64,000 nucleotides of DNA from an uncultured Candidatus Saccharibacteria bacterium (GCA_964416665.1 CAYQFA010000001.1:40082-104081); one strand, 5' to 3'; positions 5,680 to 60,380 are shown, counted from the first letter of the stretch. Program-made: numbers and translations. The notes: generated by a model not told the origin, from the sequence alone.

Positions 5680-5708
5680 TTGACCGCCGCGCCATTTCAC
5701 GGTATCAT
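5680..5708 (+). promoter_or_regulatory. sigma70-like promoter for rny
   Basis: TTGACC (5680-5685), 17-nt spacer, TATCAT (5703-5708). Lies in the divergent gpmI/rny intergenic region, ~63 nt upstream of the rny ATG. Confidence 0.4.
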
Positions 5709-5771
5709 AAGAACAATTAAAACGTCATTAAATGAGCTCTAAAAATTTAGGGATTACCTATAACAACTATT

Positions 5772-7298
5772 ATGGAAAGTTCTACAGCGCTTATCGCCGC
5801 TCTCTTTCTCGTGATTGGGGCAGCAGTCGGTTACTTTACGCGGGGTTCCTGGGCAACTAAAAAACAGGGTGAGGTCGAGGAGAAAATAAAAAAGAGCATC
5901 GCCGAGGCGGAGACAAAGGCGAAGGAGATAGTGATAGACGCCAAGGAAAAGGCGGCGTCGCTTTTGGTCGAGATAAAGAATGATGAGCGGGATCGCCGGA
6001 AGGAGATCGAGTCGCTCGAATCGCGCATATTACATCGCGAAGAGTCGCTCGACAAGAAGTTGACCGACCTTGCAGCCGAGGAAACAAAGCTGAAGACGAA
6101 AGATCAACAGCTGAAGGAGAAGGAGGAGTTGGTGGCCAAGAAAGAAGGGGAGATCGACGGGCGCCTAGAAAAGATAGGCAACCTTTCAATAGCGGAAGCA
6201 AAAGAGGAGATTTTGCGCCGTGCGCGCGAGGATCGTGCGCAGGACCTTGCCCAGAGCATCCAAAAGATCGATCGCGAGAACCGCGACGACGTCGAAAAGC
6301 GTGCGAATGACATCATTACGATAGCGCTCCAGCGTTATGCGCGTTCGCATGTCGCCGAAATGACCACCACGCTTTTCCCGCTTGGGGACGAGGAATTCAA
6401 GGGGAAGATCATTGGTCGTGAGGGGAGGAATATCCGCGCGCTTGAGCGTGCGACCGGCGTGGAGTTCATTATTGATGAGGCTCCGGATGCGATCATCATC
6501 TCGTCGTTCGACCCGTATCGCCGCGAGACCGCGCGGCTGGCGCTCGAAAAACTCATTAAAGACGGCCGTATTCAACCCGCGAAGATCGAGGAAAAGGTGG
6601 AAGAGGCGAAGTCCGAGCTCGTAAAGCGCACACAGGAGATCGGCGAGAGTGCGGCGCAGGATCTCGGCGTTTACGATCTTCCGAAAGAATTGCTTCAACT
6701 TATCGGTCGGCTCCATTTCCGCACAAGCTACGGTCAGAACGTGCTCACCCACTCGGTGGAAATGGCGTATATTGCCGAGATGATGGCGCGCGAGCTTGGT
6801 TTGAATTCCGAAGTTGCGAAGAAAGGCGCGTTGCTCCACGACATCGGCAAAGCCGTCGATCAGGAGGTGGAAGGCACGCATGTCGATCTCGGCATGAAAC
6901 TGCTCAAAAAATATAATATAGATGAACGCGTGATCGAGGCGATGCAATCGCATCACGACGATTATCCGTATGCGCGCCCCGAGGCCTACGTGGTGACGGC
7001 GGCGGACGTGCTTTCGGCGGCGCGCCCGGGCGCGCGGCGTGGGACCCTCGAAAATTACGTAAAGCGCCTTGCCGACCTTGAGAAGATCGCGGGCGAGTTT
7101 CAGGGCGTTAAGAGCGCCTACGCGATCGCCGCCGGACGCGAACTCCGCGTGTTCGTGATCCCCGAAAAGGTGGACGACTTCCGCGCGCTCGAACTTGCCC
7201 GTGAGATTGCCAACCGCATCCAATCGGAGTTAAAATATCCTGGTGAAATAAAAGTGAACGTCATTCGGGAAATGAGGGCTGTGGAATACGCCCGCTAG
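5772..7298 (+). CDS. rny: ribonuclease Y
   Basis: 508 aa. N-terminal TM helix, a long coiled-coil, a KH domain (IIGREGRNIRALE) and an HD domain (LLHDIGKA…). Confidence 0.85.
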   Translation: MESSTALIAALFLVIGAAVGYFTRGSWATKKQGEVEEKIKKSIAEAETKAKEIVIDAKEKAASLLVEIKNDERDRRKEIESLESRILHREESLDKKLTDLAAEETKLKTKDQQLKEKEELVAKKEGEIDGRLEKIGNLSIAEAKEEILRRAREDRAQDLAQSIQKIDRENRDDVEKRANDIITIALQRYARSHVAEMTTTLFPLGDEEFKGKIIGREGRNIRALERATGVEFIIDEAPDAIIISSFDPYRRETARLALEKLIKDGRIQPAKIEEKVEEAKSELVKRTQEIGESAAQDLGVYDLPKELLQLIGRLHFRTSYGQNVLTHSVEMAYIAEMMARELGLNSEVAKKGALLHDIGKAVDQEVEGTHVDLGMKLLKKYNIDERVIEAMQSHHDDYPYARPEAYVVTAADVLSAARPGARRGTLENYVKRLADLEKIAGEFQGVKSAYAIAAGRELRVFVIPEKVDDFRALELAREIANRIQSELKYPGEIKVNVIREMRAVEYAR

Positions 7299-32647: not shown

Positions 32648-33568
32648 ATGATGTACGACGTCATTATCATCGGTGGCGGTCCCGGCGGCATCGCTGCCGG
32701 GGTTTACGCTGCGCGAAAAAAGATGAAGACGCTCTTGATCACCGACAGTTTCGGCGGACAGTCGCTGACGTCCGCGGGGATCGAGAATTGGATCGGCATA
32801 AAATCGATCTCGGGCTACGACCTCGCGAAGATGCTTGAGGAACATTTGCGTGCGCAGCAGGGTATCGAGATCGTTGATAACGACCTTGTGAGCGGCGTCA
32901 CAAAAAAGGATGGCGGTTTTGATGTTGTTACAAAGGGTGGTAAAACGTTCGAGACGAAATACATCCTTATGGCTTCGGGGAGCAGGAGAAAAAAGCTCGG
33001 TATTCCCGGCGAAGCGGAATTTGACGGCAAGGGCGTGGTGTATTGCTCGACGTGCGACGCGCCGATCTTCGGCGGTAAGACCGTGGTGGTCGTAGGCGGT
33101 GGAAATTCTGCGCTCGAATCGGTCGTCGATCTTCTGCCCTATGCGTCAAAGATCTATTTGATGGTTCGCAGTGACGTCATGCGGGGTGATCCTGTCACGC
33201 AGGAAAAATTGAAGAGTCATCCGCAGGTGGAGATTCTTTTCAATGCGGCGCCGCAGGAAGTAATTGGAAAAGATTTTGTGACCGGTTTGCGCTACAAAGA
33301 CGCGAAGACCGGCGAGCAAAAGGAATTGGCGCTCGACGGCGTCTTTGTCGAGATCGGTCTCGTGCCGAATTCCGATTTTGTAAAAGACCTCGTGACGCTG
33401 AACGAATTTGGCCATGTGATCGTCGATCACAAAACACAGCAGACGTCCTGCCCCGGCATCTGGGCCGCAGGCGACGTAAGCGACGTGCTCTACGACCAGA
33501 ATAATATCTCCGTAGGCGACTCTATCAAGGCAGTGTTGAATATCTACGACAGGGTGAAGAAGGATTAG
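32648..33568 (+). CDS. trxB: thioredoxin-disulfide reductase-like FAD/NAD(P) oxidoreductase
   Basis: FAD site DVIIIGGGPGGIAAG, redox-active CSTC, NAD(P) site VVVVGGGNSALE, and C-terminal GIWAAGDV. Confidence 0.7.
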   Translation: MMYDVIIIGGGPGGIAAGVYAARKKMKTLLITDSFGGQSLTSAGIENWIGIKSISGYDLAKMLEEHLRAQQGIEIVDNDLVSGVTKKDGGFDVVTKGGKTFETKYILMASGSRRKKLGIPGEAEFDGKGVVYCSTCDAPIFGGKTVVVVGGGNSALESVVDLLPYASKIYLMVRSDVMRGDPVTQEKLKSHPQVEILFNAAPQEVIGKDFVTGLRYKDAKTGEQKELALDGVFVEIGLVPNSDFVKDLVTLNEFGHVIVDHKTQQTSCPGIWAAGDVSDVLYDQNNISVGDSIKAVLNIYDRVKKD

Positions 33569-33683
33569 GAACGCAAGGTACTCTTTGTTTTGGAGGTCGC
33601 GTCGTTTTCTGCTGAAAACGCGCTACGCCTCGGCGCCTACGCGCCTCCGGCATACCTCCAAAACAAAGAGTACCTTGCGTTCC
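33568..33683 (+). repeat. 116-nt compound palindromic element: perfect 29-bp inverted repeat enclosing two internal hairpins
   Basis: Outer arms GGAACGCAAGGTACTCTTTGTTTTGGAGG (33568-33596) and CCTCCAAAACAAAGAGTACCTTGCGTTCC (33655-33683). The interior contains CGTTTT-CTGCTG-AAAACG and a GC-rich hairpin. Starts at the last base of the trxB stop codon. Confidence 0.6.
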
Positions 33684-33752
33684 TAATCCTTCTTCAGTTA
33701 GCCAGAATCAAGATTAATCCCCAGAGGGAAAGCCAAATAGCAAGGGTACGCA

Positions 33753-33791
33753 CTTTTGCGGCCTGCTGCGAAGACGCAACGGCCGCAAAAG
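33753..33791 (+). repeat. conserved-loop hairpin family member A
   Basis: Stem CTTTTGCGGCC/GGCCGCAAAAG (11 bp); 17-nt loop TGCTGCGAAGACGCAAC. Confidence 0.6.
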
Positions 33792-33837
33792 CATGTGCCC
33801 TTGCTATTTAGCCCAACTTGATGTATCATAATCCATA

Positions 33838-34104
33838 ATGCTTACTAAAAGAGTGAAATCCCGCATCGTCGGGGAACATAAAACGAGCGAAAAAGACACG
33901 GGTTCCGCCCAGGTTCAGGTTGCCATGCTTTCGCGTCAGGTTGGCGAACTCGCCACCCATCTCAAGAAAAATCCGAAGGATAACCATTCTCGTCGCGGGT
34001 TGTTAAAGATGGTCTCCAAGCGCAGGAAACTTCTGTCGTATCTGAAGAAACACGAGCCAGCCTCGTATGAAAAGTTGATCAAGAAGCTTGAACTTAAAAA
34101 ATAA
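33838..34104 (+). CDS. rpsO: 30S ribosomal protein S15
   Basis: 88 aa: MLTKRVKSRIVGEHKTSEKDTGSAQVQVAMLSRQVGELATHLKKNPKDNHSRRGLLKMV…. Confidence 0.9.
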   Translation: MLTKRVKSRIVGEHKTSEKDTGSAQVQVAMLSRQVGELATHLKKNPKDNHSRRGLLKMVSKRRKLLSYLKKHEPASYEKLIKKLELKK

Positions 34105-34775
34105 TGAAGCAAGGAACAAATTATTCCAACCAGCGAGTTGGGATTTTTGTTGATGTGTCGAATCTGTACCACTCAGCAAAAAATCTTTATCAGGGGCGCG
34201 TGAATTACGCCGAGCTCATCAAGCATCTTGTGGGCGGGCGCCAGCTCATTCGCGCCGTGGCGTACGTGGTGCGGAGCGAGGGCGTGGAACCGCAACAGCC
34301 GCGCGGGCATATGCGCATGGCCGAGAAGGACCAGGCTGCGGCAGTCTCGATCGTTCCGGCATCCGCGAACGCGAATGGATCGAATGGTACCGGCGACGGC
34401 GCGAACGGGGGTATGTCCTCCGAAGCGAGTTTCTTTGAAGCGCTCGAGAAAGCCGGACTTGAGCTTCGCATGAAGGACCTTCAGATCTACGCGGGCGGGC
34501 TTAAGAAGGGCGATTGGGATGTCGGCCTCACTGTGGACGTCATCCGCATGATGCCGTTCCTCGATGTCATTATTCTGGTCACTGGCGACGGCGATTACAT
34601 TCCGCTGGTCAATTATGTGAAATGGGCAGGAGGGCGAGTGGTCGAGATCGCCTCGTTTCGAAGGAGCGCATCGTCAAAACTGGTGGAGGCGGCGGACGAG
34701 TTCATAAACATAGAGGCTCTTCCGCGGGCGATCATGAAGTCGCGGTATGTCGCAAGGACGAAAAGGCCGCAGTAA
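34104..34775 (+). CDS. NYN-domain (LabA-like) predicted ribonuclease with an internal low-complexity insert
   Basis: VGIFVDVSNLYH…VILVTGDGDYIPL NYN/PIN-like motifs. The ATG overlaps the rpsO stop by 1 nt (TAATG). Confidence 0.6.
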   Translation: MKQGTNYSNQRVGIFVDVSNLYHSAKNLYQGRVNYAELIKHLVGGRQLIRAVAYVVRSEGVEPQQPRGHMRMAEKDQAAAVSIVPASANANGSNGTGDGANGGMSSEASFFEALEKAGLELRMKDLQIYAGGLKKGDWDVGLTVDVIRMMPFLDVIILVTGDGDYIPLVNYVKWAGGRVVEIASFRRSASSKLVEAADEFINIEALPRAIMKSRYVARTKRPQ

Positions 34776-50138: not shown

Positions 50139-50945
50139 ATGAAAAAAATCACCAAATTGGTACTGCCCATTGCCGGGCTCGGCAAACGCCTGCTTCCTCT
50201 TACTGCGATAACTCCAAAGAATCTCATTCCCGTGAATGGCAAACCCATTTTGGAGTATGTCCTTGAAGAGGCGGTTGCGAGCAAGATAAAAGAGGTGATA
50301 CTTATCATCAATCCCAAACACCTTAAGGATTTCAAGGCGTATCTTGCAAAGAACAAGAAGCGGTTTCCCACGCTTACGTTCCATATCCGCATCCAGGAAA
50401 CGCCGGGCGGAAATGGCCATGCGATCGCTCAGGCTTATGATCTCGTGAAAGGCGAGCCTTTCGCGGTACGTTTCTGTGATGATGTGCTTTCGGGCGAGCC
50501 GGCTGCACTTCCGGCGCTCCTTGAGATCTTCAAAAAATATCAGGCGTCGGTGGTGCTTCTGGAAGCGGTTCCCAAGGCTGATGTCTCGCGGTTCGGGGTC
50601 GTTGGGTTTGAAAAGGGGAAGGCGGCAACGGCCTCCTTCGCTGGCGGGACCATTTATAAAATAAACAAGATAATTGAAAAGCCAAAAACGAAAGACGCAC
50701 CTTCGAATTTGATCATCGTCGGCGGTTATGTGCTTACCCCGGACATACTCCGCAATCTAAAAATGGTTGCCGATACTTTGCCGGTCGTTGCCGACGATGC
50801 GTTGCCGCTCGCGGTGGCGCTGCAGATCGAATTGATCGTTAAGGGCAGAATTTATGGCTGGGAATTTCCCGGCAAGCGCCTTGATTGCGGCACGTTGGAA
50901 AAGTTGCAGCAAACGGAAGAATACCTGAGAAACAACAAGCAGTAA
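50139..50945 (+). CDS. galU: UTP-glucose-1-phosphate uridylyltransferase-like nucleotidyltransferase
   Basis: N-terminus KLVLPIAGLGKRLLPLTAITPKNLIPV and a GalU-like body. Confidence 0.65.
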   Translation: MKKITKLVLPIAGLGKRLLPLTAITPKNLIPVNGKPILEYVLEEAVASKIKEVILIINPKHLKDFKAYLAKNKKRFPTLTFHIRIQETPGGNGHAIAQAYDLVKGEPFAVRFCDDVLSGEPAALPALLEIFKKYQASVVLLEAVPKADVSRFGVVGFEKGKAATASFAGGTIYKINKIIEKPKTKDAPSNLIIVGGYVLTPDILRNLKMVADTLPVVADDALPLAVALQIELIVKGRIYGWEFPGKRLDCGTLEKLQQTEEYLRNNKQ

Positions 50946-51026
50946 TCCGGCAAAACAAAACAGTCCCTTTCCGGCTCGTGATGAGAATAATTCGCCGGAA
51001 AGGGACTGTTTTGTTTTGCCGGATTA
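50941..51026 (+). repeat. perfect 34-bp palindrome IR1 with an asymmetric 18-nt centre
   Basis: GTAATCCGGCAAAACAAAACAGTCCCTTTCCGGC - TCGTGATGAGAATAATTC - GCCGGAAAGGGACTGTTTTGTTTTGCCGGATTAC. The first arm contains the galU stop codon. Confidence 0.7.
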
Positions 51027-51089
51027 CTGCTTTATTTTCTTTAGGTTCTTCCGTTTGCTGCAACTTTATCTTTCCGGCAAAGCCATACG

Positions 51090-51179
51090 GCAATTGCAGG
51101 ATAGCAAGGAGAATGGCTTTCCGGCGAATTATTCTCATCACGAGCCGGAAAGCCATTCTCCTTGCTATCCTGCAATTGC
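51090..51179 (+). repeat. perfect 36-bp palindrome IR2 with the same 36-nt core as IR1 in opposite orientation
   Basis: GCAATTGCAGGATAGCAAGGAGAATGGCTTTCCGGC - GAATTATTCTCATCACGA - GCCGGAAAGCCATTCTCCTTGCTATCCTGCAATTGC. The centre is the reverse complement of the IR1 centre. Confidence 0.7.
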
Positions 51180-51181
51180 TA

Positions 51182-51190
51182 TGGTATAAT
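51182..51190 (+). promoter_or_regulatory. extended -10 element (TGGTATAAT) 6 nt upstream of the regulator ATG
   Basis: TGGTATAAT followed by CCGGCA-ATG. It is identical to the box upstream of recA. Confidence 0.4.
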
Positions 51191-57042: not shown

Positions 57043-57123
57043 AGCAGGAGATTAGGTTGTGCCATTTTATGACCTGCTGCGCAGACGCAACGGTCATAAA
57101 ATGGCACGACCTAATCTCCTGCT
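57043..57123 (+). repeat. conserved-loop hairpin family member C
   Basis: 32-bp stem (one G-U pair) AGCAGGAGATTAGGTTGTGCCATTTTATGACC/GGTCATAAAATGGCACGACCTAATCTCCTGCT; loop TGCTGCGCAGACGCAAC. Confidence 0.65.
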
Positions 57124-57273
57124 TCTCGTCTTTGTAAGAGCGGGGAGCGTGGGGTAAGGAGAACCCCTTACCTCACACGACGAGCCCTCGTCGTTCAACG
57201 GATAGGACGCAAGATTGCGGATCTTGTAATCGAAGTTCGATTCTTCGCGGGGGCACAAAACAGAAAGACAAAA

Positions 57274-57326
57274 CCCTCTTCTTTTCGACCGAATCGCGCG
57301 GACGCTAAAGGTCGAAAAGAAGATGG
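57274..57326 (+). repeat. divergent hairpin family member E
   Basis: Stem CCCTCTTCTTTTCGACC/GGTCGAAAAGAAGATGG (one mismatch); loop GAATCGCGCGGACGCTAAA retains the apical GCG-CGGA-CGC mini-helix. Confidence 0.45.
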
Positions 57327-57348
57327 CATTACTTGCTCTGTCCGTCAG

Positions 57349-57376
57349 TTGAAAATGGCCAGCGATAGGCTATAAT
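57349..57376 (+). promoter_or_regulatory. promoter for tRNA-Gly
   Basis: TTGAAA (57349-57354), 16 nt, TATAAT (57371-57376), about 35 nt upstream of the mature tRNA 5' end. Confidence 0.5.
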
Positions 57377-57410
57377 AGGAACTAGTTTTCTGCGCCTTGG
57401 GCGCAATGCC

Positions 57411-57482
57411 GCGGGTATCGTATAGCGGCTATTATGTAACCTTGCCAAGGTTAAGATACGGGTTCGACTCCCGTTACCCGCT
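57411..57482 (+). tRNA. tRNA-Gly(GCC); CCA not encoded
   Basis: Acceptor stem GCGGGTA/TACCCGC, anticodon loop TTGCCAA (anticodon GCC), T arm ACGGG-TTCGACT-CCCGT. Confidence 0.85.
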
Positions 57483-57484
57483 CA

Positions 57485-57579
57485 CAGACAGAACAAGCCA
57501 GAACAGAATACTCTTTTTCGACCTGCTGTGATTACACAACGGTCGAAAAAGAGTATTCTGTTCTGGCTTGTTTTGTCTG
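57485..57579 (+). repeat. conserved-loop hairpin family member D (39-bp stem), on the tRNA-Gly 3' trailer
   Basis: Arms CAGACAGAACAAGCCAGAACAGAATACTCTTTTTCGACC and GGTCGAAAAAGAGTATTCTGTTCTGGCTTGTTTTGTCTG. Loop TGCTGTGATTACACAAC. Starts 3 nt after the tRNA 3' end and is followed by a T-rich tract. Confidence 0.65.
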
Positions 57580-58471: not shown

Positions 58472-58479
58472 GATAACAT

Positions 58480-58537
58480 AAACACCCCCTTCTTCAAAAG
58501 CATTATTCTTATCATGCTTTTGAAGAAGGGGGTGTTT
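58480..58537. terminator. bidirectional intrinsic terminator between convergent EamA gene and glmS; overlaps the glmS stop codon
   Basis: Perfect 24-bp stem AAACACCCCCTTCTTCAAAAGCAT/ATGCTTTTGAAGAAGGGGGTGTTT with a 10-nt loop, flanked by an A-run on one side and a T-run on the other. Confidence 0.7.
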
Positions 58538-60380
58538 ATTCTACCGTTACCGATTTCGCCAGATTTCGTGGCTTGTCCACATCGCATCCGCGCGCGACGG
58601 CAACGTGATAGGCGAAAAGATAAACGGGGATCGCGGCGAGGATAGGCATGAGCGCCTCGTGGCAATCGGGGATAGCGATGACGTCGTCGGTCCAGGCGCG
58701 CAACTCGGCTGCGGCAGCGCCAGCGGTCGTGAGCGCGATGACCGGCCCGCCGCGCGCCTTCACTTCTTCGAGGTTCGATTTGGTTTTCTCGTAGGTCTTG
58801 TCTTGGGGAATGATAAAGAACGTCGGCGTCTGTGCATCGATCATCGCGATCGGCCCATGTTTAAACTCGCCCGCGGCGCACCCTTCGGCATGCAGATAGC
58901 CGACCTCCTTCAGTTTGAGCGCGCCCTCAAGCGCGATAGGGAAGTTGTGGTTGCGTCCGAGGAAGAACATGTGCTGGACATGCGCGTATTTTTCCGCGGT
59001 TGCTTTTATTGTCGGTTCCTGTTCGAGGACTTTTTTGAGGAGCATCGGCAGAAGTTCAATTTCTAAAGATATCTTTTCCGCTCCAACGGCGTTTTCGTTT
59101 TCGCGCCGCCGCGCCATTTCCGCTGTGATCAACGTGAGCACGGTGAGTTGCGAGATAAACGCCTTCGTCGAAGCGACGCTGATCTCCGGTCCTGCGTGGT
59201 TATAGATGACGGCGTCGGTTTCCCGCGCGATGGTCGATCCGACCGTGTTCACGATGCCGAGCGTGCGCGCGCCACGCCGCTTTGCTTCGCGGATCGAGGC
59301 CAGCGTGTCTGCGGTCTCGCCTGACTGCGAGATGGCGATGGCGAGCGTTTTGGGGCGGAGCGGCGCCTTCCGATAGCGAAATTCGGAGCCGATATCAACT
59401 TCGACGGGGATATTGGCGTAGGCTTCAAGAAGGTATTTCCCGACGTATCCCGCGTGCGCCGCGGTGCCGCAGGCGACGATCGTGATATTCTCGATATCAT
59501 GCATGGCTTCGACGGCTGCGCCGAGCGTTTTGCCGTTCGCGCGCAGCGCGTTCACGACCACATCCGGCGCCTCAAAGATCTCTTTGTGCATAAAATGAGG
59601 GTGGCCATTTTTTCCCGCGTCCTCGAGGGTGACGGTCAGCGTCCGTACCGCATGCTCAACCTTTTTTCCATCAAGCGTTTCGATGGCAAGATTACCAGCT
59701 CCGACTTCAGCGATTTCTCCGTCATCGAGATAGATGACTTTTTTGGTGCGACTTAGGATCGCCGATGCATCCGAGGCGATGATGTTCTCGCCGTCGCCCA
59801 CGCCGATGATGAGCGGGCTCGCGCTTCGCGCGCAGACGATCGTTTTCGGATCGTTCGCGGCGATCGCGGCGATCGCGTAAGTGCCGCGTATTTCTTTAAG
59901 GGCACGCTGTGCGGCGTGGAAGAGTCCATGCTCGTCGCCCTCGTCATCCTCCGATTTTTTGCGATGATATTTTTCGATCAGGTGCGCGAGGACTTCCGTG
60001 TCGGTGTCCGAAGAAAATCGGTGCCCGTCGGATATCAGGTCTTTCTTGAGCTCCGCATAATTTTCGATGATGCCGTTATGGACGACAAGAATGGTGCCGC
60101 TGCAGTCGGCGTGAGGATGCGCGTTCCTTTCTGACGGCGCACCATGGGTCGCCCAACGTGTGTGCGCAATACCGATATGGGCCTTTTGTGCGCCGCCGTT
60201 ATCGCTGAGCTTCGCTTCCAGATTTGCGACCCGTCCGGCGGCGCGGATCCAAAGAACTTTGCCGTCGGTTATCGCTGCGACACCCGCTGAATCGTAGCCT
60301 CGATATTCAAGCCGCTTCAAACCGTCCACCAGAATGGGGATCACGTTCTCGTCGCCGATGTAGCCGATGATGCCGCACAT
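58536..60380 (-). CDS. glmS: glutamine--fructose-6-phosphate aminotransferase
   Basis: N-terminal MCGIIGY (Ntn glutaminase), two SIS domains, and C-terminal …KSVTVE. The ATG at 60380 gives the canonical Cys2 start; the track ORF starts 8 codons upstream. Confidence 0.9.
   Translation of the reverse strand: MCGIIGYIGDENVIPILVDGLKRLEYRGYDSAGVAAITDGKVLWIRAAGRVANLEAKLSDNGGAQKAHIGIAHTRWATHGAPSERNAHPHADCSGTILVVHNGIIENYAELKKDLISDGHRFSSDTDTEVLAHLIEKYHRKKSEDDEGDEHGLFHAAQRALKEIRGTYAIAAIAANDPKTIVCARSASPLIIGVGDGENIIASDASAILSRTKKVIYLDDGEIAEVGAGNLAIETLDGKKVEHAVRTLTVTLEDAGKNGHPHFMHKEIFEAPDVVVNALRANGKTLGAAVEAMHDIENITIVACGTAAHAGYVGKYLLEAYANIPVEVDIGSEFRYRKAPLRPKTLAIAISQSGETADTLASIREAKRRGARTLGIVNTVGSTIARETDAVIYNHAGPEISVASTKAFISQLTVLTLITAEMARRRENENAVGAEKISLEIELLPMLLKKVLEQEPTIKATAEKYAHVQHMFFLGRNHNFPIALEGALKLKEVGYLHAEGCAAGEFKHGPIAMIDAQTPTFFIIPQDKTYEKTKSNLEEVKARGGPVIALTTAGAAAAELRAWTDDVIAIPDCHEALMPILAAIPVYLFAYHVAVARGCDVDKPRNLAKSVTVE

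Follow-up and report, generated by a model that had tools for sequence, protein, structure and literature searches.

A perfect palindrome between trxB and rpsO of an uncultured Candidatus Saccharibacteria bacterium and its conserved two-hairpin core

Organization of the trxB-rpsO junction

The 64,000-nt stretch of DNA analysed here (GCA_964416665.1, CAYQFA010000001.1:40082-104081; hereafter the window), from an uncultured Candidatus Saccharibacteria bacterium, carries a perfect palindrome at the junction between trxB and rpsO. Both flanking genes are open reading frames (ORFs) on the plus strand, trxB (32648-33568) encoding a 306-aa thioredoxin-reductase-like protein (Pfam Pyr_redox_2) and rpsO (33838-34104) encoding the 88-aa ribosomal protein S15 (Pfam Ribosomal_S15). 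A repeat search placed the arms of the palindrome at 33555-33597 and 33654-33696, each 43 nt long and 100% complementary to the other, with 56 nt between them, giving a 142-nt element (33555-33696) beyond which pairing stops, G33554 and G33697 being unpaired. The arms are assigned to neither strand; the left one comprises the last 14 nt of trxB (TGAAGAAGGATTAG) and 29 nt of its 3' flank, and the right one, the exact reverse complement of the left, was also recovered in contigs L004, L005 and L008. An earlier, sequence-only reading of the window had described a 29-bp perfect repeat abutting the trxB stop codon; that repeat is present (33568-33596 / 33655-33683) but is only a subset of the 43-nt arms, and the palindrome, although at the stop, actually contains the last four sense codons of trxB together with the TAG (33555-33568).

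Between the arms lies a 56-nt core (33598-33653, plus strand), termed here the S-type apex module, containing the two inner hairpins that the same reading had noticed. Hairpin 1 (33599-33623, plus strand; GCG-U-CGUUUUC, loop UGCU, GAAAACG-CGC) includes the previously noted CGTTTT-CTGCTG-AAAACG at 33603-33620, and hairpin 2 (33627-33651, plus strand) consists of GCC-UC-GGCGC, loop CUAC, and GCGCC-UCC-GGC. Structure prediction on 33555-33696 as RNA returned, as the minimum fold, a 43-bp stem carrying two hairpins, which is the three-way junction that had been suggested, at -103 kcal/mol (z = -19.66, with none of 200 shuffles as good); this is several-fold the energy of ordinary terminators, in line with the earlier remark that it goes far beyond what a terminator needs. 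The 56-nt spacer alone also has a significant fold on either strand, with z = -3.35 on the plus strand and -4.33 on the minus strand.

Downstream of the palindrome, a 35-nt linker (33697-33731, plus strand), whose 3' end reads with the start of the next hairpin as AAAGCCAAATAG, leads to hairpin A (33732-33812, plus strand; loop TGCTGCGAAGACGCAAC), a member of the hairpin family that we call type 1 and orthologous to the one hairpin that relatives have between trxB and rpsO. From the true right arm to hairpin A the distance is 36 nt rather than the 70 nt first described, and the arms of hairpin A are 84% complementary, compared with 100% for those of the palindrome. A promoter-like site for rpsO (TTGCTA-17-TATCAT, 33801-33829, plus strand), with its -35 box within the right arm of hairpin A, precedes the ATG at 33838. 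The intergenic region (33569-33837) is thereby filled, in agreement with the first description, by palindrome, linker, hairpin A and promoter-like site.

Arm and spacer sequences are single-copy within the window, and the 142-nt sequence recurs base for base in L002, an independent Joint Genome Institute (JGI) assembly from a second sample. An exact arm search of JGI metagenome contigs, a collection without the source sample, gave no match, blastn against phages and plasmids detected no similarity, and a literature search turned up no publication on such hairpins in the Candidate Phyla Radiation (CPR). Within the window, only tRNAs exceeded the Rfam thresholds; at E values up to 10 the palindrome matched only the hairpin models mir-942, mir-5595 and MIR7510, at 26-43 bits against thresholds of 93-100, the best of these microRNA matches scoring 42.6 bits against a gathering score of 100. 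A consensus scan found no terminator-like site spanning the palindrome.

A two-hairpin core at unrelated loci

A fragment search of the fetched loci identified a 56-nt homologue of the core in L187 (116-171), downstream of a gene that, from its C-terminus (..LLPYVRK*), putatively encodes ribosomal protein S18 (rpsR); over 62 nt this core matches that of the window at 88.7% identity. Two more, in L140 (2464-2526) and L116 (5597-5667), emerged from a long-hairpin scan of contigs carrying family hairpins. These three cores, all on Paceibacteria contigs, span 56-71 nt and sit on unrelated arms, of 10 bp in L187, 27 bp in L140 and 34 bp in L116. All four cores fold alike, as a basal stem with two hairpins, and have in common a hairpin-1 loop of UGCU or UACU closed by C-G, a hairpin-2 loop of CUUC or CUAC, and a conserved UCC bulge on the 3' side of hairpin 2; the echo of the family loop noticed earlier in TGCTG is a feature of every copy.

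The covariance model built on the four cores (R1) scores them at 80-92 bits and finds nothing beyond them in 1.2 Mb of related loci. Across the R1 alignment, which was fitted to the model structure, 14 of 28 pairs have changed on both sides, including six in helix 2 (hairpin 1) and three in helices 3 and 4 (hairpin 2), and 89% of cells are paired, a share that falls to 38-49% once partners are slid; none of 500 shuffles reached the observed values. These compensatory changes mean that the three-way junction exceeds a single-sequence prediction. The window and L187 cores contain Watson-Crick pairs only, so that these two offer no G-U evidence identifying the strand. Judged by the four sequences, the core is a conserved, covarying module absent from Rfam, and the proposal of a structured RNA holds in so far as the inner helices covary, but not as a conserved RNA of this locus, which relatives with TrxB identities of 90-93% have without it. 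Among viral contigs, the family loop gave only chance-like matches with stems of at most 7 bp, a core fragment gave none, and a degenerate core pattern gave 15 matches, approximately the chance number by hand estimate, none of which gave a score with R1.

One gene call crosses the element, a 73-aa ORF (33590-33811) annotated by JGI that runs through core, right arm and hairpin A, has no Pfam match and is absent in relatives. A coding function was rejected, the helix-preserving changes from CGUUUUC/GAAAACG to CCGGCC/GGCCGG being incompatible with a conserved peptide, and the call is almost certainly spurious.

Gain of the palindrome in the lineage of the window

The closest relatives with retrievable DNA at this locus have TrxB proteins 90-93% identical to that of the window. 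In two of them (L226, 91%; L231, 92%) only 100 nt separate trxB from rpsO, and a single type-1 hairpin fills this spacer, its left arm containing the trxB stop (GGCTAAATAGCAAGGG..) and its right arm the rpsO -35 box. Hairpin A is orthologous in the window, L226 and L231, with six pairs changed on both sides across the three sequences, and its 17-nt loop in L226 and L231 is the reverse complement of that in the window. Elsewhere the junction has received genes, namely a RelB/ParE pair and a Vgb_lyase-like gene in L089 (TrxB 93%) and a Methyltransf_21 gene in L227-229 (TrxB 90%), and no long inverted repeat of the palindrome's kind occurs at these junctions. Homology between L089 and the window ends at 33551 and restarts at 33824; together with the 100-nt spacers of L226 and L231, this gap identifies the palindrome and the 35-nt linker as a gain specific to the window's lineage.

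A further relative, P0004 (ERZ1426829 contig), whose TrxB is 96% identical, has a 209-nt trxB-rpsO spacer. Scanning GTDB genomes with TrxB returned, at best, Paceibacterota metagenome-assembled genomes of 72-78% identity, in which no rpsO, NYN or pnp match followed trxB and which were uninformative for the locus. By these best matches the bacterium was placed in Candidatus Paceibacterota (Patescibacteria). Exact look-ups with the NYN and glutaredoxin sequences retrieved no further contig crossing the palindrome. Five different trxB-rpsO arrangements occur among close relatives, and the junction is a hot spot of change (L089 5919-8309, L227 4486-5421, L226 1066-1165 and the ERZ1426829 contig); in L004, from the window's own population, rpsO has pyrG as its neighbour. 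Local alignment of the linker/hairpin-A region to the trxB end and left arm of L226 scored 36, against a shuffle maximum of 26, and the boundary AAAGCCAAATAG has the look of a degraded duplicate of the stop region, ..AAAGGCTAAATAG, of ancestral trxB.

The TTGCTA-17-TATCAT hexamers and their spacing are also found upstream of rpsO in L089, L226, L227 and L231 (promoter-like sites at window 33801-33838, L089 8270-8312, L226 1130-1168 and L227 5385-5424). The rpsO ATG follows the -10 box by only about 8 nt, which leaves no space for a Shine-Dalgarno sequence, and the rpsO mRNA in the window's lineage is therefore probably leaderless. Between rpsO and pnp lies a gene for an NYN-domain protein, a predicted ribonuclease (34104-34775), that overlaps the rpsO stop in an ATGA-type junction and has orthologs in L089, L226, L227 and L231, an arrangement that suggests an rpsO-NYN-pnp operon of RNA metabolism.

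Origin of the arms and orientation of the spacer

The C-terminus of TrxB (..NIYDRVKKD*) aligns to its end with those of relatives (..NIYDRVKKH*, ..QVKKG* and ..KIKKS*), and the outer 14 nt of the left arm are therefore native coding sequence. It follows that their reverse complement at 33683-33696 was copied from the trxB end, and that part of the left arm lying after the stop codon resembles the left arm of the ancestral hairpin in L226 and L231. On this comparison the arms of 43 nt represent an inverted duplication, at the DNA level, of the end of trxB, the right arm being the copy. Selection on RNA would allow G-U pairs and mismatches and therefore offers no explanation for perfect arms. 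No target-site duplication was found, the flanks (..ACAGGG before and GTTAGC.. after) having no common direct repeat. A MITE, or miniature inverted-repeat transposable element, with terminal repeats of its own was also considered and was ruled out because the outer part of the left arm is native trxB coding sequence.

With respect to the genes around it, the core lies in sense orientation at two loci, those of the window and L187, and in antisense orientation at those of L140 and L116. Within the window's own population, the same locus also appears with the spacer turned around: L008 is the exact reverse complement of 33555-33729 followed by 33697-34126, that is, the spacer is reverse-complemented between identical arms, and in L004, from another sample and another assembler, the reverse complement of 33598-33620 adjoins the right arm and is preceded by a pyrG promoter. 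Two independent assemblies sharing this adjacency of inverted spacer, arm and rpsO make a real flip likely. At L004 987-1062 the native pyrG promoter region is joined to the inverted 33598-33620 and the right arm through ..AAAACG/GCAT/GATTT CCCC.., where GCAT corresponds to the last bases of the spacer. PyrG of L004 shares 93% identity with its counterpart in the L226 species, and the pyrG promoter keeps its native sequence as far as CCCC; the join has the appearance either of a real rearrangement that broke within the palindrome or of a chimera.

Synteny links L116 to window 1-7 kb, and the orthologous site of the window has no element; such elements therefore come and go. Beside the S-type element of L116, about 550 nt (5702-6256) are likewise missing at the orthologous window site and include a canonical terminator (AAAAAACCCGTTGCCGGGCTTTTTGTTT) as well as a GC-rich structured sequence that is possibly an uncalled small RNA or gene.

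A family of hairpins with apex modules

Scanning the metagenome with the type-1 family loop returned more than 117 stretches, of which about 33 had near-perfect, locus-specific stems of 19-41 bp in which Y and R of the apical mini-stem pair without exception; the remainder, with stems of at most 9 bp, were chance matches. Considering 37 type-1 hairpins, 34 from the metagenome and relatives' contigs and three from the window, the adjacent gene usually ends between -15 and +8 nt of the stem, and frequently this holds for both flanks, so that these hairpins abut or overlap stop codons, often those of convergent genes. Many have a lower stem of A-tract, GC stem and U-tract like that of bidirectional terminators. 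At least two additional apex loops are recurrent, TCGTGATGAGAATAATTC and TTTAGCGTCCKCGCGAYYC, each of which the window contains as well, and altogether at least four module types with CTTTT../..AAAAG flanks occupy hairpin apices, a set in which the S-type core is a rarer and larger member. In 20 of the 25 contigs that are at least 3 kb long, type-1 loop orientation follows positive GC skew, a trend confounded with gene direction.

Several other hairpins of the window and of related contigs belong beside this family. At window 50900-51182 lies a second compound palindrome, in which a 22-nt perfect repeat (50900-50921 / 51046-51067) surrounds a hairpin with a 53-bp stem, followed by another with a stem of 36-39 bp; these hairpins share the 18-nt apex loop TCGTGATGAGAATAATTC, inverted in one relative to the other, and loops of this type also occur in L106, L177 and L173. 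Genes for tRNA-Arg and tRNA-Gly (57043-57579) are each bracketed by long hairpins, of type 1 at 57043-57123 and 57485-57579 and of a third loop type (the reverse complement of TTTAGCGTCCGCGCGATTC, also in L163 and L203) at 57274-57326. Between convergent genes at 58474-58543 stands a perfect 29-30-bp hairpin in the stem style of the family (ACACCCCCTTCTTCAAAAGC..), with no conserved apex module. On the reverse strand of L176, two type-1 hairpins 500 nt apart (1678-1760 and 2174-2268) have about 25 nt of arm sequence in common (AACAAAAGACCCCTTCTTTTCGACC), and similar arm motifs occur in L212, L140, L129 and window 57274; these common motifs make it appear that some whole hairpins, and not just their apex loops, have been duplicated or dispersed.

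Comparison with known palindromic elements

Repetitive extragenic palindromic sequences, bacterial interspersed mosaic elements and REPINs of Proteobacteria (REP/BIME/REPINs) offer the nearest likeness, being small structured palindromic modules at gene 3' ends, in either orientation, dispersed at low to moderate copy, with a proposed role in mRNA stabilisation or as an aid to termination and an orientation bias compatible with handling of single-stranded DNA (ssDNA). The extragenic 3'-end position is found here too, the palindrome overlapping the trxB stop and its type-1 relatives abutting stops. Unlike in those elements, conservation here is confined to the apex while the long arms differ from locus to locus, the core is a two-hairpin junction rather than a single imperfect stem, and instead of a many-copy imperfect palindrome of 20-40 nt we find a core with a single copy in 64 kb and four copies in 1.2 Mb of related DNA, on unique arms. 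A GTAG or CGTC tetranucleotide at one end, the REP tag (PMC3733652), is not conserved, CGTC being present in the window core (33600-33603) and absent from the cores of L187, L140 and L116. No REP-associated tyrosine transposase (RAYT, a Y1 HUH transposase) is among the Pfam-annotated neighbours in the 64 kb of genome covered.

MITEs such as the Correia elements (CREE) of Neisseria and ERIC/IRU of enterobacteria resemble the palindrome in being 100-150 bp long, intergenic and co-transcribed, with long inverted ends that can form RNase III-type substrates. Their terminal inverted repeats are conserved, recognised by a transposase and flanked by target-site duplications, whereas the arms at trxB are unique, include a host stop codon and are flanked by no duplication; here the centre is conserved instead, and no relationship exists between the arms of one S-type element and those of the other three. 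Quasipalindrome template switching (the Ripley model) produces perfect arms, extension into coding sequence and inverted spacers or loops, but is a mutational mechanism rather than a functional class, and its documented cases mostly have arms of 5-20 bp with spacers of a few bases, compared with 43 bp and 56 nt here. Bidirectional intrinsic terminators and the long terminal stem-loops of Actinobacteria that have no U-tract also abut stop codons, often between convergent genes, and the A-tract / GC stem / U-tract lower stems of the type-1 relatives are of that kind; the palindrome, by contrast, is U-rich in its 5' arm, has no U-tract after it and has several-fold the energy, and a conserved apex module is not a terminator trait. 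Leaders of rpsO, which likewise can place a three-way junction beside that gene, differ in that the palindrome precedes the promoter, is not conserved together with rpsO, has homologues at other genes and has no Rfam match. In its position and its likely influence on transcripts the palindrome recalls REP/BIME and hairpin-forming MITEs, but it lacks the conserved arms, tags and target duplications that define them; it is best filed among extragenic palindromic elements shaped by a known mutational mechanism.

Interpretation of the palindrome

The account that we favour, by a modest balance of probability, is a young, lineage-specific extragenic palindrome that combines a conserved apex module with arms shaped by template switching and probably serves as a 3'-end barrier. 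Within it, we infer the duplication step, template switching as the cause and the function. The ancestral trxB-rpsO spacer would have held one hairpin, with the trxB stop in its left arm and the rpsO -35 box in its right arm; in the window's lineage this hairpin region would have been locally duplicated, and the upstream copy would have acquired an S-type core. Replication template switching, or conversion of one arm by the other, may then have homogenised the arms and extended them into trxB, and the same process may reverse-complement the spacer, which would account for both orientations. Template switching between the arms of inverted repeats has been found to homogenise them, to lengthen them (from 5 to 16 bp in one case) and to invert the spacer (PMC8604942), and its signatures are also described in PMC8794818 and PMC13100816. 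Signatures of this kind are found here in perfect arms reaching into trxB, in the inverted spacer of L008 and L004, and in the inverted hairpin-A loop of L226 and L231.

Once single-stranded, most plausibly as the 3' end of the trxB-operon transcript, the element would fold into a very stable three-way junction that could block 3'-to-5' exonucleases and read-through just before the rpsO promoter. In addition to hairpin A, this would give a further barrier, one that has no U-tract. Binding of a factor may be the role of the conserved core, or the core may be a selfish passenger. A transcript 3'-end barrier or insulator before the rpsO promoter is, judged by position, the probable function.

Several observations weigh against this account. 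An RNA role is read from position only; on either strand U is abundant in the 5' arm and A in the 3' arm, a polarity opposite to that of an intrinsic terminator, and the right arm is followed by GTTAGCCAGAATC, with no U-tract. The two putative hairpin copies of the window are not significantly alike, which speaks against the duplication step, and the comparison of cores draws on four sequences only. The spacer-inverted state depends on two short contigs, of which L008 has a palindromic (fold-back) start, a possible assembly or amplification artefact, and L004 contains a second, unexplained junction to pyrG. The suggestion that the palindrome acts as an RNA at all is not supported, with the core sense in two loci and antisense in two, and reverse-complemented beside rpsO in two other assemblies; such orientation variation and flips in the population argue against a sequence-specific RNA function and would fit a DNA-level or selfish element.

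The main rival is accordingly that of a selfish, REP- or MITE-like mobile palindrome, whose modules would spread between hairpin apices, for example as ssDNA handled by some nuclease or transposase, with no host function and with arms that are a mutational by-product; we regard it as possible, though distinctly less probable than the favoured account. Elements are present or absent at non-orthologous sites (the trxB locus against L226 and L231, and L116 against the window), the several apex module types with their common flanks occur in both orientations, the core is 88.7% identical between contigs that otherwise have only a 21-nt DNA match in the type-1 module, and the confounded GC-skew trend of type-1 loops is what ssDNA elements of the lagging template would give. 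Yet no transposase or recombinase is listed by Pfam within about 5 kb, no target-site duplication accompanies arms that differ between copies, the core is of very low copy (four in the 1.2 Mb searched), and the orthologous type-1 hairpin has been kept with compensatory changes in three species, which suggests a benefit to the host. A dispersed repeat with insertion-sequence-like features, or a lack of conservation in related genomes, had been named beforehand as contrary to the sequence-only reading; of these, the locus is not conserved and the core is dispersed at low copy, but no insertion-sequence-like feature was found. The idea that the three-way junction is itself the functional unit, a protein- or ligand-binding RNA of 3' untranslated or intergenic regions in several Paceibacteria, draws on the covariation of both inner helices and on the conserved loops (UGCU, CUUC/CUAC) and UCC bulge; we judge it improbable, given an antisense core in 2 of 4 loci, flipping within the population, closest relatives without the element at this locus, a best Rfam score of 42.6 bits against a gathering score of 100, and the Watson-Crick-only window and L187 cores, in which no G-U pair marks the strand.

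Perfect inverted repeats around a segment present in both orientations in the same population could also suggest an inverton, in which the 56-nt flip toggles expression of rpsO-NYN-pnp or the 3' end of trxB. This is very unlikely, as neither orientation of the spacer has a promoter-like site, rpsO has its own conserved promoter downstream, the two orientations fold equivalently, and no invertase is found among the neighbours (glycosyltransferases, VTT-domain, DsbA-like, SPW, glutaredoxin, TrxB, S15, NYN, PNPase and RecA); 56 bp is moreover very short for protein-mediated inversion. Some Firmicutes and Thermus have S15 leaders that are three-way junctions, and here a three-way junction lies directly upstream of rpsO, yet an autoregulatory leader mimicking the three-way junction of 16S rRNA is scarcely credible: the palindrome is upstream of a conserved promoter of leaderless type, is absent upstream of rpsO in L226, L231, L227 and L089, has homologous cores at unrelated genes, and matches no S15-leader family of Rfam even at E values up to 10. 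The leader and inverton readings were both rejected on these grounds. An artefact of assembly or library, a fold-back chimera, comes to mind since palindromes provoke chimeric reads and graph errors, L008 begins with a fold-back, and L005, L093 and L094 break at or before the element. It is highly doubtful nonetheless: the identical 142 nt lie mid-way along a 119.5-kb JGI metagenome contig that includes the window and was seen in two samples, and they recur in a separate 2.6-kb contig of a different sample; the right arm is present in four further assemblies, and the core has natural homologues elsewhere.

Implications for gene-end hairpins in CPR bacteria

Genomes of CPR bacteria (Patescibacteria) are tiny and almost unstudied for non-coding DNA. 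The findings at trxB indicate that long gene-end hairpins bear at their apex a conserved module of two covarying hairpins, that the arms of hairpins in these genomes would be built by inverted copying from neighbouring functional sequence such as stop codons and a -35 box, and that such palindromes flip, marking a rearrangement-prone junction. More speculatively, and in our estimate rather unlikely, the S-type core, together with the 17-20-nt apex loops of types 1-3, may form a CPR-specific module system at gene-end hairpin apices that is recognised by a dedicated factor, either an ssDNA hairpin nuclease or transposase that moves and flips the modules or an RNA-binding protein of termination or processing, with the trxB palindrome as a recently seeded, actively flipping member that one population shows in both states. 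If the modules do have a specific factor, they would provide a handle on termination, RNA decay or a new type of mobile element in an uncultured phylum; if they have none, the palindrome would be a clean natural case of template-switch evolution, in which a 43-bp perfect palindrome has come to overlap coding sequence.

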